Origin: Paludibacteraceae bacterium
Lineage (GTDB): Bacteria; Bacteroidota; Bacteroidia; Bacteroidales; Paludibacteraceae
Length of the DNA stretch: 64,000 nucleotides
Reading direction: 5' to 3'
Assembly (NCBI GenBank): GCA_024689005.1
Contig: JAILDU010000093.1
Location: forward strand, 649 to 64,648
Each line of letters opens with the position of its first letter. The stretch's first letter is position 1. Positions 4,030 to 61,168 of the stretch are shown piece by piece. A model generated the notes under the pieces. The model was not told the DNA's origin. It was given only the letters and a program-made list of their open reading frames with translations, and searched no databases. The position numbers and the translations under genes were made by a program.

Positions 4030-4204
4030 CTTTACACTCCAAAGTGGGGGGGGACAGTACAATTGGCAATAGCTCCTGATTGAAGCAATTTTAATGCTTC
4101 CAGTTTGACCTCTAAGGGCACTTTCTTCCACATAATAAAGTATTTAAAGTGTCCCAAAAACGGGGTACACTACAAGTCTGGACACGGTGTGATCAGCATA
4201 ATAT

Positions 4205-4314
4205 ATCGTATATGTATCGTGTATCTATCGTATATATAACGTGTATCTATCGTATATCTAACGTGTATCTATCGTATATCTTTCGTGTATCTATCGTGTA
4301 TGTATCGTAGTCGT
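4205..4314. repeat. Tandem array of ten contiguous 11-bp units (consensus ATCGTRTATCT)
   Basis: Units read directly from the sequence: atcgtatatgt, atcgtgtatct, atcgtatatat, aacgtgtatct, atcgtatatct, aacgtgtatct, atcgtatatct, ttcgtgtatct, atcgtgtatgt, atcgtagtcgt. CG occupies unit positions 3-4 in all ten. Confidence 0.95.
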
Positions 4315-5940: not shown

Positions 5941-5984
5941 CCTTCGATATGCCTTCGATATGAGTTCGACAAGACCTCGATCGT
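5941..5984. repeat. Tandem array of four 11-bp units (CCTTCGATATG family)
   Basis: Units are ccttcgatatg, ccttcgatatg, agttcgacaag, acctcgatcgt. CG occupies unit positions 5-6 in all four. The array lies between waaA and hisS. Confidence 0.85.
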
Positions 5985-7386: not shown

Positions 7387-7414
7387 AAAGCTAATTATCA
7401 ATTGTCAATTATCA
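7387..7414. repeat. Four tandem 7-bp units (ATCAATT family) in the spacer just upstream of a start codon
   Basis: Units are atcaatt, gtcaatt, atcaact, atcaatt. The 21-mer tcaattatcaactatcaatta (7395-7415) recurs exactly at 59702-59722. Confidence 0.85.
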
Positions 7415-7430
7415 ACTATCAATTACCGAA

Positions 7431-21038: not shown

Positions 21039-21172
21039 GGCACTTCTAAAAAATCCATGTTTAAGGAGTTTCCCATAGTTAATAATATTTGAACTTTAAC
21101 ATGCTTTCGCGTTTACTCTTTGTCTTGCTATAAAAGAACCCTTAAAAAGAGTGTGGAGAATCTGCTTAACAT

Positions 21173-21282
21173 CAGCGTAAGGTCAGCGTAAGGTCTGCTG
21201 ATTATCTCGAGTATTGTCTAGGATTGTCTCGATATTAACTCGAAGTCAACTCGAAGTCAACTCGAAAGCATCTCGAAAAGTT
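21173..21282. repeat. Tandem array of ten 11-bp units in perfect register (mixed unit sequences)
   Basis: Units are cagcgtaaggt, cagcgtaaggt, ctgctgattat, ctcgagtattg, tctaggattgt, ctcgatattaa, ctcgaagtcaa, ctcgaagtcaa, ctcgaaagcat, ctcgaaaagtt. The array contains the dispersed 26-mer ctcgagtattgtctaggattgtctcg (21206-21231). Confidence 0.93.
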
Positions 21283-21346
21283 TTCGGTTATAAATAGAAA
21301 GTGCTCTGCGCAAATTATTGTTAGCAGAGTGATAAATCGTGTAATG

Positions 21347-21378
21347 CTTGCGTAATTGAAAAAAAAATAGTATCTTTG
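21347..21378 (+). promoter_or_regulatory. Bacteroidota -33/-7 promoter upstream of the HXXEE membrane protein gene
   Basis: CTTG (21347-21350), a 20-nt spacer containing an A9 tract, then TATCTTTG (21371-21378) followed by CGCGG. Confidence 0.72.
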
Positions 21379-21404
21379 CGCGGTTTTTGTGCGCAGAAAA
21401 GTAA

Positions 21405-21995: not shown

Positions 21996-22037
21996 TGTTG
22001 GCACACTATTTGAGCAAGGGAAGTGGGGAATAGTGTA

Positions 22038-22081
22038 AAACCCCGATGAAACCCCGATAAAATATCGAAAAAAGAGAAAGG
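22038..22081. repeat. Short 11-bp-register array (AAACCCCGATR family) upstream of grpE
   Basis: Units are aaaccccgatg, aaaccccgata, aaatatcgaaa, aaagagaaagg. The reverse complement of the ATCGGGGTTT units appears at 42612-42655. Confidence 0.75.
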
Positions 22082-31855: not shown

Positions 31856-33384
31856 CGAATTCCGTATTGTGTGGTTGTCAGATGTTGTTTTTTTGTTTCG
31901 TTCCAGATGGCTTTGTTTCGTCTAAAGTCCTCTTCGTTACGGTAAGGGCGTTTGTGAAAGAGATGTAAGAGTGGCGTTCCGTATCTCAATTGAATACCGG
32001 TTATACCAGCATTCTCCAATCGTTGACCAAATTCGCGGTCTTCAGCTCCGTAACGCATACGTGTATCAAAACCATTTGCACGGATGATATATTCGCGCCA
32101 TGTAGAAGCATTTCCTCCGTTCCATGAAGCCTTCGTTGGCGTAATCCAATTCATCACTTTGCATACAAAAGAGTTGTGCCATAGTTTGCTCATCTTCCAA
32201 TTCCATGGCATTCCATGTTGTCTCAACCAATTGATGCAGAACGCATTTCCGCTTGCAATATCCTCTTCTGATAAAGCATGACTCAATTGTTCGGGCAACA
32301 TGATTGCACCACCGGAAACAAAGTGTCCATGCGCGGCATGTCTGTAATGCTGACTGATAAAATCTTTTCTCGGTATTAAGTCTTGATCGATAAAGATCAG
32401 ATAATCGCTTTGGGCAATAGTAACGGCTTTGTTCAGTATTTCTGTTTTGCGGAAACCATGGTCCTCGTGCCATACATGTCTTAAAGGTAATAGCGTAGAG
32501 TATTGCTCTATGAGCGCAGCAGTTCGTTGGTCTGAGCCATCATCGGCAATGATTATTTCGGTAGACCGGTGCGTTTGATATTTCAGTCCCCAGAGAACTT
32601 TCTCAAGCCAAGTCGGATTGTTGTATGTGGATACAATAACACCAACAGAAAATGTGTCATCGGTAACGAAATGTTCATGTGAATGGTGCTTCCAAAAACG
32701 TGTTCGCGCAGTTTGTATCCATTGTATGCAATCAGTTTCGCTTATATTTCTATCTGCAGCATAAATCGGACACAAAGATTCAAAGAAATCCTTTTTCCCC
32801 CAAAGGCGGCACAAGTTGTTACACCCCTGGCGAGGAGAAACATAGCCGAACTGCATTCGGTTGATATCCACCAATTCAAACTGCCACTTGTTATTAACCT
32901 TTCCGTAGAGAATGTTTCCCGGAGACAAATCTTTGTGCAACACGCCTGCATTATGTAACGATGCTGCAAAATGTGCGAAAGCCTCAATCAAGTCCTCTTT
33001 GCCTGCAATATTACCATCTCTGAAGTTGTAGAAACTCTGAGTGAACCGGCTTTGCAGGGTGATGAGATAAGATTCTTCTATAAGACCATTTCCGCAAAGA
33101 ATGTATGCTATAGGAGTCGGTGTCGCAATTCCTCGTTTCTTTAACTCAAAAGCATTTCTGTATGCAGATTCTGCCTTTGGAGTGCGAAACAAAGTATAAA
33201 CTAAGCGATTGAACCAAATGGGTCGTTTATAACGTTTTACGCACAACGAAAATCCGTTATACGTGATTAGTCTTATTTGGTTGCGTTCGTTATAGATTAC
33301 CTTTCCTAATTGTTCAAACTGCTGTGGAATCAATTGCAGCCATTCACGCAACTGTTCATATTGTGGATTGACTATTATCTTCAT
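31852..33384 (-). CDS. Fusion protein with an N-terminal LPS-kinase (Kdo/WaaP/InaA family) domain and a C-terminal GT2 glycosyltransferase domain
   Basis: The kinase catalytic loop is LHKDLSPGNILY, followed by ELVDINRMQF. The GT2 start is VGVIVSTYNNPTWLEKVL...IIADDGSD...FIDQD. Confidence 0.75.
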   Translation of the reverse strand: MKIIVNPQYEQLREWLQLIPQQFEQLGKVIYNERNQIRLITYNGFSLCVKRYKRPIWFNRLVYTLFRTPKAESAYRNAFELKKRGIATPTPIAYILCGNGLIEESYLITLQSRFTQSFYNFRDGNIAGKEDLIEAFAHFAASLHNAGVLHKDLSPGNILYGKVNNKWQFELVDINRMQFGYVSPRQGCNNLCRLWGKKDFFESLCPIYAADRNISETDCIQWIQTARTRFWKHHSHEHFVTDDTFSVGVIVSTYNNPTWLEKVLWGLKYQTHRSTEIIIADDGSDQRTAALIEQYSTLLPLRHVWHEDHGFRKTEILNKAVTIAQSDYLIFIDQDLIPRKDFISQHYRHAAHGHFVSGGAIMLPEQLSHALSEEDIASGNAFCINWLRQHGMPWNWKMSKLWHNSFVCKVMNWITPTKASWNGGNASTWREYIIRANGFDTRMRYGAEDREFGQRLENAGITGIQLRYGTPLLHLFHKRPYRNEEDFRRNKAIWNETKKQHLTTTQYGIR

Positions 33385-34325
33385 TTCGTTTCCAGTAGTT
33401 TGTTAACAATTTCTTCAGGTGTGATATCCAGGCAGCGATAGTCGCCATATTTGCATTTCTTGTTGCCATAGATAGAGCAAGGACGGCATGGCATATCATG
33501 TTGTATGCAGTCGGACTCTTTTTGTCCGAAGCCTAAGAATCCAGCATTGGGATGCGTAGCGCCCCAAATAGAGATGACTCGTGTCCCAGCCAAAGAAGCA
33601 AGGTGCATGTTTGCGCTATCCATAGTAAGCATGACGCGCAGGTTTTTCATTCGCTTTAGGTCGCTCAAGATCCCGGAATTGACTCGAGTATTGTCTAGGA
33701 TTGTCTCGGAATCAACCCACGATTGTAATATACTTATTTCTTTTTCTCCTGCTCCAAACAAGACGACCTTTTCTCCTCGGTTACGTAGCAATTTGACCAC
33801 CTGTTCCATCTTGTCGATGGGATATATTTTTCCTCTGTGTGCAGCAAAAGGTGCGATACCGATACCCTCTCCTGATGTGCTGATGGATGGTTGCGGCAAA
33901 AGAATAGGAAAACCTATGCGTCGCAGTACATCAGCATATCGCTCAATCATCGGCACGAGAGGTTTCCGTATCCAACCATGAGTGAGCATCCATTTTTGGA
34001 TGCGTCCTTTGTGTAAGGTTGCCACGTGTGCGCCGCGTAGTCTCATGCACCAACGAATGTAGAGCGAGCGCCAGACACCATGCATGTCTGCCACATAATC
34101 GTATTTGCCCAAACGATTTATTATCTCTCGAAGTGACTCTTTTTTTGTGTCCACTCCCAGAAAATGTACGTTATGCGGCATGTCAGCGTACAAGTCCGCC
34201 ATGCGTTGTCGCGAAAGCATGGTAATTTCCGTGTCCGGATATTGTTCGGCTAGTGCGCGAACAACGGGAACCAGCATAGCGACATCGCCTAAAGCGGAGA
34301 AACGTATGACAAGTATGCGTATCAT
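33381..34325 (-). CDS. GT9-family glycosyltransferase (heptosyltransferase)
   Basis: MIRILVIRFSALGDVAMLVPVVRAL...MDSANMHLASLAGTRVISIWGATHP. Confidence 0.85.
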   Translation of the reverse strand: MIRILVIRFSALGDVAMLVPVVRALAEQYPDTEITMLSRQRMADLYADMPHNVHFLGVDTKKESLREIINRLGKYDYVADMHGVWRSLYIRWCMRLRGAHVATLHKGRIQKWMLTHGWIRKPLVPMIERYADVLRRIGFPILLPQPSISTSGEGIGIAPFAAHRGKIYPIDKMEQVVKLLRNRGEKVVLFGAGEKEISILQSWVDSETILDNTRVNSGILSDLKRMKNLRVMLTMDSANMHLASLAGTRVISIWGATHPNAGFLGFGQKESDCIQHDMPCRPCSIYGNKKCKYGDYRCLDITPEEIVNKLLETK

Positions 34326-42354: not shown

Positions 42355-42378
42355 ATTTGTCCAATATAAAAAATCGCG

Positions 42379-42410
42379 CAAAGATACTACTTTTTTCTCA
42401 TATATGCAAA
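42379..42410 (-). promoter_or_regulatory. Bacteroidota -33/-7 promoter driving the mlaE...LOS gene string
   Basis: On the minus strand: TTTG (42410-42407), a 20-nt spacer with an A6 tract, then TATCTTTG (42386-42379) followed by CGCGA. Confidence 0.75.
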
Positions 42411-42490: not shown

Positions 42491-42655
42491 TAATTGTCTC
42501 GGAATTGACTCGGAGTTGACCCACGTATTGTCTAGGATTGACTCGTAATCGTCCCGTAATCGTCCCGTAATTGTCTTGAAGACATATCGAAGGCAATTCG
42601 AAGACAATTCGAATTTTTATCGGGGTTTGTTCGGGGTTTTATCGGGGTTTGGTCA
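42491..42655. repeat. Tandem array of fifteen 11-bp units in perfect register (165 bp)
   Basis: Units are taattgtctcg, gaattgactcg, gagttgaccca, cgtattgtcta, ggattgactcg, taatcgtcccg, taatcgtcccg, taattgtcttg, aagacatatcg, aaggcaattcg, aagacaattcg, aatttttatcg, gggtttgttcg, gggttttatcg, gggtttggtca. CG sits at the unit end in 11 of 15 units. Confidence 0.95.

Positions 42656-54843: not shown

Positions 54844-54844
<1 letters not shown>
52928..54844 (-). CDS. dxs: 1-deoxy-D-xylulose-5-phosphate synthase
   Basis: GHLASSLG, VWDVGHQAYAHK, IGDGAMTGG, 638 aa. Confidence 0.97.
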
Positions 54845-57477
<2,633 letters not shown>

Positions 57478-57564
57478 ATATTATTTTTTATTTTGTGCCT
57501 TGTAAATAATCCTTATTTACGCTCTTCTGCTCTTGGCAAGATGAACTGAAAGGAAAAAATCGCG

Positions 57565-57596
57565 CAAAGGTACAACATTTTTTTTGAATATGCAAA
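57565..57596 (-). promoter_or_regulatory. Bacteroidota -33/-7 promoter upstream of valS
   Basis: On the minus strand: TTTG (57596-57593), a 20-nt spacer with an A8 tract, then TACCTTTG (57572-57565) followed by CGCGA. Confidence 0.75.
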
Positions 57597-57705: not shown

Positions 57706-58482
57706 TTATTCCATGCTGATTACAGTCACTTCTGCGATTGTTCTTCCTCCCTCGCGAAGATGCAGCTTCTGGCCGATGAATGATACAAGTCCGCAATAGG
57801 CTTGCTTAATTTCAATAGTAGCATTGTAGCATGTATCGCCCGGCATCAACAAGTCTGTTACCTCATTCTTACTATTAGTTCCAAGGGATGTCACTTCCGA
57901 AAGAATATCAGTTTTTCCGTTGTTGAGCATCGGTTTATAACCGGCGAAGAAAGGTGTGTGAGTTCCGCCTTCTTCCTTGGTAAATTTATGTATGTCGCAA
58001 AAGAACTTGTGCGCTTTGAAGTACGGAGAATTCTCTGCTGCCACAATGGCTCCGCCTCTCTGACCTGTCAGTTTTTCCTTGACTGAAGTGCTAACAAGGA
58101 ATCCGAGTCGGTTGACTGTGTCCATTTCTGCCGTAGATTGATAGGTCTTTTTGCCTCTCTGAAGGCCTTTGATGGTGTCGCAGAATGAAGCCAGCGTGTC
58201 GGACACAGGGATGAAACGAATGACGTCGCCCACGCTGAGAGTGGTATTGCTGAGCAAAGTGTCGCATGTGACTATTGTTCCTCTGCCTGTGAGTTGCAAT
58301 ATGTCGTCTATGTAGGCCAATATGTCGTTACTCTTGGCAAAAGTGATGCTATCTACCATCTCAAAAGCTTTCTGTTCTACAATGTGGCCGTTCTTCCAGA
58401 TCTTCATGATTCGTGTCTGTTCCTGGGCCATAGCACTTGTTGCTACTATGGCAGCAAGTGCAAAAAGTATAATCTTTTTCAT
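57706..58482 (-). CDS. Secreted protein homologous to EF-Tu domains II and III (no G domain)
   Basis: Signal peptide MKKIILFALAAIVATSAMA. Colinear EF-Tu matches are GRGTIVT, VGDVIRF, KEEGGTHTPFFAGYKP, LLMPGD and LREGGRTIAEVTV. Confidence 0.7.
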   Translation of the reverse strand: MKKIILFALAAIVATSAMAQEQTRIMKIWKNGHIVEQKAFEMVDSITFAKSNDILAYIDDILQLTGRGTIVTCDTLLSNTTLSVGDVIRFIPVSDTLASFCDTIKGLQRGKKTYQSTAEMDTVNRLGFLVSTSVKEKLTGQRGGAIVAAENSPYFKAHKFFCDIHKFTKEEGGTHTPFFAGYKPMLNNGKTDILSEVTSLGTNSKNEVTDLLMPGDTCYNATIEIKQAYCGLVSFIGQKLHLREGGRTIAEVTVISME

Positions 58483-58522
58483 ATTCTTTAATTCTTTAAT
58501 TCTTTCATTCGTTCACTCTTTA

Positions 58523-59321: not shown

Positions 59322-59354
59322 TCGTCGGTATCTCGTCGGTATCTCGTCGGTATC
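59322..59354. repeat. Three perfect tandem 11-bp units (TCGTCGGTATC)
   Basis: tcgtcggtatc occurs three times, contiguous, with degenerate flanks. Confidence 0.9.
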
Positions 59355-59413
59355 TTCTCAGCCTCTTTTTTCGTTTTTTTTAACGAGTATATTTGATAAA
59401 TCAAATAGAATAT

Positions 59414-59490
59414 TTTTCGGACCCGTTTTCCGCGCATTTCGGTATTGAGGTTTTATCGAGGTTTTGACGGGTTTTATTGAGCTTATTTCC
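59414..59490. repeat. Degenerate 11-bp-register array with phased T-tracts (GAGGTTTTATC family)
   Basis: The core units are gaggttttatc, gaggttttgac, gggttttattg. TTT(T) tracts recur at about 10-14 bp intervals from 59414 to 59488. Confidence 0.7.
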
Positions 59491-59654: not shown

Positions 59655-59727
59655 CTGCGTTTTTGTAAATTATCAATCAACATCCGCTTAACGAAAAACT
59701 ATCAATTATCAACTATCAATTATCCTC

Positions 59728-60946: not shown

Positions 60947-61001
60947 ACCATAGGATAACCATAGGATAACCATAGAATAACCATAGGATAACCATAGGAT
61001 A
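60947..61001. repeat. Five tandem 11-bp units (ACCATAGGATA)
   Basis: Units are accataggata x2, accatagaata, accataggata x2, contiguous. This is the only array with no CpG in its unit. Confidence 0.95.
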
Positions 61002-61168
61002 AAGCCACCTTTCCCGTACTCTGTCTTCTGTCTCTCGCGTTATCTACTATATATACTTTGTATATATACTTTTTTCACAATGTCTTGTGGAAACGAATCG
61101 GACTAAAACCGCCCAAATATCCCGATAATCACACCTTTGTACTTTTTTTACAAAAAAATCAAGAAATA

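Follow-up and report, generated by a model that had tools for sequence, protein, structure and literature searches.

How does sequence that belongs, by its letters, to an intergenic 11-bp array come to lie within the intact coding frame of an unrelated gene? The question is raised by a stretch of 64,000 nucleotides of a rumen Paludibacteraceae metagenome-assembled genome (MAG), in the following called the window, and by its gene for a glycosyltransferase of the GT9 (heptosyltransferase) family. The plus strand of this gene reads gaattgactcg agtattgtcta ggattgtctcg gaatcaaccca from 33676 to 33719, four units in an 11-bp register that a sequence-only reading had pointed out and that the letters bear out. 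It was proposed that array sequence had been inserted into, or converted within, the coding DNA while the frame stayed open. The comparison with orthologues, in which the protein and DNA levels agree, documents that residues 204-222 are an equal-length replacement; conversion or replacement is thus upheld by the gap-free alignment and insertion is not, and the mechanism itself is something that we infer below. The altered tract comprises about 57 bp (33660-33716), so that the array-type patch is real but longer than the 44 bp originally delimited. The features of the gene that are needed here are the following.

33381 to 34325, minus strand: GT9 (heptosyltransferase-family) gene, intact open reading frame (ORF) of 314 codons, assigned by Pfam PF01075.
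33660 to 33716, minus strand: replacement tract of 57 bp, codons 204-222 (VDSETILDNTRVNSGILSD), about five 11-bp units, delimited by the orthologue alignment.
33676 to 33688, plus strand: left unit gaattgactcg, exactly as at 42503-42513, followed by 'ag'; the 26-mer shared with 21206-21231 starts with the last 4 bases of this unit.
33689 to 33708, plus strand: 20-bp core TATTGTCTAGGATTGTCTCG, located by repeat and mismatch scans; the gene strand reads E-T-I-L-D-N.
33709 to 33719, plus strand: right unit gaatcaaccca, identical at 8 of 11 positions to gagttgaccca (42514-42524); the unit ends on the 3 bases that encode the conserved Trp203.

The replaced tract of the GT9 gene

The ORF, whose product includes the peptide WVDSETILDNTRVNSGI, matches the PF01075 profile with E = 4.6e-14 over residues 74-286, the C-terminal domain, and a profile built from its orthologues matches the PDB entries 3TOV and 1PSW. 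Our protein alignment comprises the window sequence and 34 orthologues that are 59-66% identical overall; all 35 sequences are aligned without a gap at the tract, whose length equals that of the orthologous sequence (VESVAGKYSLREEL). Over residues 206-220 the identity of the window to the orthologues is 0.02 versus 0.71 for the conservation among the orthologues themselves, and this region is the sole block of near-zero identity in the alignment. The near-invariant positions lost within the tract include Y207, V210, A214, G215, L219, E221 and E222. Inside 20 columns the window GT9 violates 7 that are at least 90% conserved, compared with 3 for the next-worst sequence. In a wider check of 119 other listed orthologues, all of them retain the motif W-A-x-K-Y-x-x-V-E-S-V-A-G-K-x-S-L-x-E-E-L that is overwritten in the window (their common pattern is x-x-K-Y-x-x-V-x-S-x-A-G-x-x-x-L-x-E-E-L). 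Orthologues with the same nucleotides in the same place would have pointed to the intergenic copies as the derived ones; the tract sequence is absent from all 119.

The DNA confirms the boundaries of the block. In a codon-anchored comparison with two orthologous genes the identity amounts to 0.13-0.4 in most 15-nt windows of the block and to 0.8 on either side, and low identity is confined to the tract. One 15-nt window reaches 0.6, at the place where the native VENT of one of these genes (L023) resembles LDNT. Outside the tract the protein is conserved like any orthologue, which indicates that the gene was under normal constraint. The absence of the tract from the orthologues and its equal length together argue that the resident sequence was replaced: as judged from these alignments, the GT9 tract is a derived, in-frame, equal-length replacement that went from array to gene and not an insertion.

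The replacement hits a recognizable element of the fold. At the position of the strand-turn-helix motif ..V-x-x-x-A/T-G-K/E-x-x-L.. preceding (N/M)DSG/A.MH, of which the A/T-G-K/E-x-x-L part is also found in the solved GT9 structures 3TOV and 1PSW, the window has ILDNTRVNSGI instead. An AlphaFold2 model built on the alignment gives predicted local distance difference test values of 69/63 for residues 201-220 versus 86-92 for the adjacent residues, and it predicts no strand for residues 206-218, which is at odds with the Rossmann-type beta-alpha-beta pattern. The model provides a weak indication that the GT9 activity may be impaired.

No inverted repeats were found in 33600-33780. The GT9 and ValRS proteins of the window are 100% identical to proteins from a Paludibacteraceae MAG at NCBI; below that, the databases searched contain no GT9 allele of more than 67% identity, whether it has the tract or lacks it. 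The gene is located in a cluster of Kelch, Wzi-like, DUF4254, GT9, GT2/Kdo-kinase and two GT2 genes, and the gene order of the orthologous locus L022 is the same.

A 20-bp core in phased 11-bp arrays

An exhaustive scan for exact repeats in the window retrieved the claimed 26-mer (33683-33708 equals 21206-21231), the 16-mer at 42525-42540 and, beyond what had been noticed, a 25-mer common to 21212 and 55272. The 20-mer is exact at 21212, 33689 and 55272 (55272-55291, in valS), as had been stated, and occurs with one mismatch at 42526. These four are the only matches with up to 3 mismatches; all lie on the plus strand, and 0.02 are expected from shuffles, which agrees with the earlier assertion that copies in one orientation shared by unrelated loci exceed chance. 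The bases of the tract that are exactly common to arrays sum up to 33 bp, namely 11 + 26 bp overlapping by 4, and the next unit agrees at 8 of 11 positions. The initial 11 bp correspond to unit 2 of the array that the sequence-only reading had placed at 42491. The other copies are located in three arrays.

21161 to 21290, plus strand: intergenic 11-bp array with the core at 21212-21231; 26 bp in common with GT9 and 25 bp with valS.
42492 to 42651, plus strand: intergenic 11-bp array located between the promoter of mlaE and a CYTH gene; its core at 42526-42545 is a variant that has A at position 16.
55272 to 55324, plus strand: intragenic array of valS (54844-57477, minus strand), consisting of the core at 55272-55291 and three phased units at 55292-55324 that had escaped earlier notice; it encodes a hypervariable linker.

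The 11-bp register is equally genuine. In the window, YCG trinucleotides phased at 11 bp make up 5 chains, each with 4 units or more, versus 0.12 in shuffles, and no such chains exist in the window at periods of 9, 10, 12 or 13 bp. Short tandem arrays are frequent in the window with a dominant period of 11 bp, and of the 139 tandem arrays found in 410 kb (the window plus related loci) 61 have a period of 11, 22 or 44 bp. The 11-bp period is a genome-wide habit that is independent of any one motif.

The distribution of the core was established with an exact scan of 596 Gb of genomes, one per species, that allowed for T or A at position 16 and for which the chance expectation amounts to about 2 matches (596e9 x 2 strands x 2 variants / 4^20). 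It detected 21 loci, and all but one belong to Paludibacteraceae or Bacteroidales MAGs from the rumen of sheep, goat and cattle; the MAG Tb.RUG.124 alone contributes 10 of them. A second scan of JGI metagenomes provided 24 further loci, partly on the same contigs, among which there is no second GT9 copy of the core. One match in an archaeal genome and one on a GC-rich metagenome contig are at chance level. The phage, plasmid and viral contig collections contain no match to core or array. The density of the core amounts to 4 copies in the 64 kb of the window (about 1 per 16 kb), 10 in Tb.RUG.124 and one per 8-kb locus elsewhere. In the related loci carrying the core or orthologous genes (labelled L0xx) and in the window, no cores with 2-4 mismatches were found save for the valS orthologues and one likely chance match in the valS of L025, and the sole common variant is T/A at position 16.

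The anatomy of the element is shared as well. The core, TATTGTCTAGGATTG(T/A)CTCG, consists of two ATTGTCT half-sites 10 bp apart and is flanked in the 21 non-redundant intergenic contexts by about three degenerate (a)ATTGTCTCG-like units on either side, all in strict 11-bp register. In units -4 to -2 and +1 to +3 the second half of the core (GGATTGTCTCG) recurs in degenerate form, with (g/a)aAtTGtCTCG as the consensus, and the terminal CG of the units reaches 1.5-2 bits on the right side of the core. The whole element of about 90 bp is accordingly composed of weak phased half-sites, a strong core of two half-sites and again weak phased half-sites. Blocks of several units recur between loci; three loci of one MAG, for example, agree over about 90 bp on the left side of the core before they diverge. 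Intergenic copies are always located between co-oriented genes, about half in each orientation. Taken by its distribution and anatomy, the 20-mer is the core of a clade-specific element that is conserved at the DNA level, a clade-wide property that was not part of the sequence-only reading.

The 21161-21290 array is located between a gene for a YbaK-type editing domain and the promoter of the 21405 gene, and the 42492-42651 array contains ATTGTCT-type half-sites in both orientations. The intergenic cores of the window lie 140-190 bp upstream of Bacteroidetes-type -7 boxes. An exact look-up of the MlaE and YbaK-type proteins flanking these two arrays for strain variants matched no record. A target-site duplication at the core was considered and dismissed, because the 11-mers to its left and right are not identical.

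Several further observations concern the arrays and the composition of the window. Two 17-nt arms at 21101-21117 and 21255-21271, 88% complementary, bracket most of the 21161-21290 array, which could be chance. A near-identical promoter-like stretch AAAAAA.TAGTATCTTTGCGCG with a TAnnTTTG-type -7 box is present upstream of the 21405 ORF, mlaE and valS, at 21360-21385 (plus strand), 42365-42400 (minus strand) and 57554-57569. Units of the AAACCCCGATAAAA type with an 11-bp period occur at 22036-22062 (plus strand) and 42615-42651 (read on the minus strand), at both loci in the same orientation toward the next downstream gene on that strand (grpE and mlaE). Intergenic 11-bp arrays without the core, with unrelated units such as TATCGTATATC (9.6 copies), TCGTCGGTATC (3 perfect copies) and ACCATAGGATA (5 copies), are found at 4204-4309, 5942-5981, 59322-59355, 59443-59481 and 60947-61002. 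CTAG is strongly rare in the whole window (16 sites versus 123 expected, ratio 0.13), AGCT (0.44) and GATC (0.61) are likewise under-represented, and 4 of the 16 CTAG sites are copies of the core, which contains this tetranucleotide. At about 30250, at a convergent gene pair without intergenic space, the gene strand switches from plus to minus and the GC skew changes sign; with regard to the idea of a replication terminus, all four window cores keep their orientation across this switch.

Core copies within genes and their turnover

Eight gene families contain the core antisense as E(T/S)ILDN, namely, valS, GT9, DPP4, PolA (in the linker between 5'-nuclease and Klenow fragment), a DHH phosphoesterase, a radical-SAM/SPASM protein, an acyltransferase-amine oxidase fusion and an ORF of unknown function. 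One bacterial gene (L019) has the core in another frame. The shared frame of the coding copies had not been recognized before; eight of nine bacterial genes use the same one out of four available open frames (p ~1e-4). The core is accompanied by phased units in valS, PolA, DHH, radical SAM and GT9, and it stands alone in DPP4 and the acyltransferase-amine oxidase fusion. The units flanking the core of PolA (L029), DHH (L002) and radical SAM (L004), in genomes other than that of the window, lie in the linkers of essential genes and encode stretches rich in T, R, E, S and Q, such as ESATRATREQHETILDNTRDQHGT. The linkers of PolA and valS from different genomes have similar units, for example the core plus units of the tgttgctctcg type.

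The antisense position in eight of the nine families is also what would be expected if the intergenic arrays were transcribed in the sense direction of the core and their RNAs paired without mismatch over 20-26 nt with the mRNAs of valS, GT9, DPP4, PolA and other genes, which all carry CGAGACAAUCCUAGACAAUA and would then constitute an antisense regulon. The 21212 array indeed lies in sense direction downstream of a plus-strand gene and is followed by a hairpin (21305-21330). However, relative to their co-oriented neighbors the intergenic copies are divided about equally between sense and antisense, on which ground a general role of transcription polarity was rejected. Moreover, the window has no Rfam match at gathering thresholds, evidence of a promoter or terminator was not found, and half-sites in 11-bp phase suggest duplex DNA and not RNA. 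The frame bias has a simpler cause: the antisense strand offers ETILDN, RDNPRQ or a stop, the sense strand YCLGLS, LSRIVS or a stop. We therefore regard a function at the RNA level as very improbable.

In 120 valS orthologues of 88-100% identity the site varies strongly and contains indels; this hypervariable linker is bounded by the conserved GESIM.A and IL...LK.II..R..RASKNIP. In every relative whose DNA was fetched, the antisense strand of this linker is an 11-bp array of the CTCG type; L025, for example, has a perfect core followed by agtttctctcg acttgctctcg actcgctctcg. The orthologue P0140 exceeds P0124 by 11 amino acids, which equals 33 bp or three units. By this comparison valS is the host of an intragenic array that changes by units, the sole clean copy-number step being one of three units, which preserves the frame.

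In DPP4 the core occurs in several species. The site exists in two states, (R/K/E)VLEDN, to which human DPP4 belongs, and E(T/S)ILDN. In a codon alignment of three species the nucleotide identity is 0.44 and that of third positions 0.18, and the longest identical run of the whole gene lies inside the core. Four carriers of ETILDN were chosen by their protein alone; in three of them the 20-mer is perfect, down to the third base of the codon before it and to a serine codon, AGT, which keeps the final A. The fourth (L054) encodes the same ETILDN with six nucleotide differences, 5 of them at synonymous codon positions. The carriers are 48-76% identical at the protein level and scattered among VLEDN lineages in a neighbor-joining tree (constructed without support values). 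A perfect 20-mer in distant orthologues, together with the same peptide made from other codons, signifies conservation beyond the need of the protein; the exact sequence is, to judge from these codons, kept or re-made by something other than the protein.

These genes also bear on the question of an artefact. The GT9 tract is documented by one MAG contig only, and it could in principle represent an assembly chimera at a short repeat or a common peptide that has converged on the same codons. Both are extremely improbable. The flanks of the tract are collinear with GT9 and frame and length are kept, so that a chimera would need two switches within 57 bp, and independent assemblies show the same thing in valS, DPP4, PolA and others. 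Chance is expected to yield the 0.02 matches per window given above, and L054 exemplifies that the codons for ETILDN are not forced.

The native peptides of valS and DPP4 resemble xILDN already, given that relatives without the core have xILxD and VLEDN, respectively. This resemblance is the basis of the opposite scenario, in which a native E-T-I-L-D-N sequence of valS or DPP4 was copied outward and seeded both the arrays and GT9. The array at 21159-21236 and valS moreover have ATCTGCTTAA.AT in common in addition to the 25-mer, with 33 extra bases between them. On the other side, the second half of the core is the best copy of the consensus of the array units, the core-bearing arrays far outnumber any single gene, and the avoided CTAG arises from the Leu codon CTA with the G next to it. 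For GT9 the direction clearly runs from the array type to the gene. The proposal that the arrays were seeded from coding DNA accordingly fails for GT9, and for the family as a whole, where the native similarity of valS and DPP4 speaks for it, it is improbable.

Strain pairs reveal how the tracts change. The flanks of L032 and L041 are more than 99% identical, and a block of about 45 bp adjoining the core is replaced with a length difference of no more than 2 bp. L005 and L018 have the same total length and a core displaced by 22 bp, which implies that units were overwritten. L006 and L044 differ by a copy-number change of 44 bp. Short, length-preserving, non-reciprocal replacement is observed in this lineage, and the GT9 tract fits it. 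Considered as a test of simple slippage, the data comprise both gain or loss of units (44 bp between L006 and L044, +33 bp in valS) and equal-length replacement of blocks; slippage alone leaves the exact core shared between loci unexplained. A second candidate patch in valS, a tract of about 50 bp at 56450-56500 with 63% identity to L012, mostly synonymous, within 95-100% identical DNA of alleles that are 93% identical overall, was rejected as array sequence and represents ordinary homologous short-tract exchange between diverged valS alleles.

Origin of the tract and relation to known systems

With a confidence little above even, we lean towards a reading that joins these results as a whole: the GT9 tract was copied from an array and filtered by the reading frame, and its core is kept as a recognition site. 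Another copy of the array would have served as the donor in a non-reciprocal event, either short-tract ectopic gene conversion or template switching. Selection would then have acted as a filter, so that coding copies persist only if frame and length are kept, almost always antisense as E(T/S)ILDN, with a preference for sites at which the native peptide was already similar to (V/I)L(E/D)N. In GT9, where the native VENT/VESV was similar to LDNT, the tract may have been retained since its frame, orientation and length could be tolerated. The exact core is a putative recognition site for a sequence-specific factor, most likely a DNA-binding protein that would occupy tandem half-sites on one face of the helix. 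If so, selection or biased conversion would preserve or re-create the exact 20 bp. The core is probably a protein recognition site; the mechanism of copying and the function of the core are both what we infer from the pattern.

A number of points weigh against this reading. No binding protein, transcript or enzyme for the core was identified. A donor with the whole 57-bp tract was not found, only 33 bp exactly match arrays, and a source for the outer 16 bp (33660-33675) was not found either. GT9 and the arrays share no flanking homology that could anchor a conversion, and the equal length could stem from selection instead of the mechanism. The tract rests on a single MAG assembly, and with the nearest GT9 relative being only 67% identical, the event can be neither dated nor bounded at the nucleotide level. 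The model suggests that the tract may damage the GT9 fold, in which case the copy, instead of being a working element, might be a lesion that is tolerated. Furthermore, much of the apparent sharpness of the core comes from searching with an exact 20-mer; the unbiased support for it consists of the four window copies and three DPP4 genes.

Some of the same evidence can be read in terms of a selfish element. A clade-specific nuclease, nickase or recombinase would recognize the core or near-matches, repair would copy the core, sometimes together with units, and the element would spread by homing or biased conversion without benefit to the host, the arrays being by-products of repeated events in 11-bp steps. 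Perfect cores in scattered DPP4 lineages amid VLEDN-type relatives are in accordance with this scenario, as are coding copies at sites where the native peptide is already similar and the exchange of blocks between loci, such as the core plus tgttgctctcg-type units in the linkers of PolA and valS. The GT9 copy, which overwrites a family-wide motif and lowers the confidence of the model, looks costly and not adaptive. However, a candidate enzyme gene is lacking near any copy: about 37 of the ORFs of the window were scanned against Pfam or NCBIfam, and these are housekeeping or envelope genes among which neither mobile-element genes nor a reverse transcriptase domain were found. The core is not flanked by a target-site duplication, and its copy number of 10 in one MAG seems low. 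On this balance we hold the selfish explanation to be unlikely.

Beyond the copying and frame filtering that we favor, it is possible, albeit rather unlikely, that the core is the recognition site of an undescribed system of rumen Paludibacteraceae that writes or maintains an exact DNA 'address' at numerous places on the chromosome and overwrites resident sequence in 11-bp steps at constant length, even in essential or conserved genes. Such a system would differ from transposition, slippage, homing of diversity-generating retroelements and the drive of uptake sequences. We found no description of the core motif or of 11-bp arrays in Bacteroidetes or Paludibacteraceae in the literature, where the motif strings matched only primers or guides.

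Several known systems come close, each in one or two features, and differ in features that define them. The Rickettsia palindromic elements, reportedly described by Ogata and colleagues in 2000, are said to be dispersed repeats that lie in frame inside protein-coding genes; they have a length of 100-150 bp, are palindromic and add 30-50 residues. Like them, the present element is a short repeat dispersed between genes and within intact, unrelated housekeeping ORFs in frames that the protein tolerates. It differs in that it consists of 11-bp direct repeats around a 20-bp core, has no inverted repeat in the GT9 tract, replaces codons at equal length instead of adding them and occurs in another bacterial phylum. 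The uptake sequences of Pasteurellaceae (uptake signal sequence) and Neisseriaceae (DNA uptake sequence) are, reportedly, also present in coding regions, a subject ascribed to Findlay and Redfield in 2009. They resemble the core in being an exact short motif kept at the DNA level across species, in coding and non-coding DNA, with a frame preference and an acceptable peptide. Their 9-12 bp in hundreds to thousands of copies, at about 1 per kb, contrast with 20 bp in phased arrays at about 1 per 16 kb, or 10 per MAG.

Iterons and centromere-type arrays are a parallel to the phasing. The parC locus of plasmid R1 has ten 11-bp iterons for ParR, and sites of the OmpR/PhoB type are direct repeats; half-sites phased by 10-11 bp, about one helical turn, with a strong centre and weaker flanks are common to them and to our element. 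Those sites are single loci beside their own genes on a plasmid or at a promoter, whereas the present copies occupy many chromosomal loci in either orientation, some of them intragenic, next to housekeeping genes and without a match in the plasmid collection. Diversity-generating retroelements replace a variable region from a template, which is reminiscent of a short coding tract replaced from a non-coding template at unchanged length. In our case, the changes are not adenine-specific, the array copies lose all similarity beyond their 26 identical bp, the GT9 tract lies in the middle of a Rossmann-type domain and not in a C-terminal variable region, and no reverse transcriptase is present among the scanned ORFs.

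A further resemblance concerns the linkers. The tandem direct repeats of Borgs are fast-evolving and located in intergenic DNA as well as in ORFs (PMC9879509). Repeats between and within genes make variable hydrophilic linkers in Borgs (PMC9879509), as they do here in valS, PolA and DHH. The differences from the Borg repeats are the 11-bp unit, the one in-gene step of three units (33 bp, 11 amino acids) and the exact core across loci. We accordingly read the element as a dispersed repeat family that colonizes coding DNA, and the process behind it has a real chance of being new.

Coding sequence is usually thought to be shaped by the protein. In the roughly 50% identical DPP4 proteins, the linkers of valS and PolA and the GT9 tract, a force at the DNA level would override conservation at the protein level. 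If the core is a binding site, it would define a new regulon or chromosome-organizing system in an abundant uncultured rumen lineage; if biased conversion is responsible, the core would be a new kind of selfish sequence and a natural case of short, length-preserving replacement with possible use as a tool. In practical terms, 11-bp arrays probably break assemblies, and the hypervariable protein linkers that they create can mislead analyses of orthology and selection in these MAGs.

Two minor observations remain from the window. A second dispersed array family is represented by the exact 21-mer TCAATTATCAACTATCAATTA, which is located at 7393-7425 and 59697-59724 and is thus common to two intergenic 7-bp arrays 52 kb apart. 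An ORF of 258 amino acids (57706-58482, minus strand), the sole Pfam match of which is domain 3 of EF-Tu at residues 157-256, is directly adjoined by an 8-bp array at 58483-58522.

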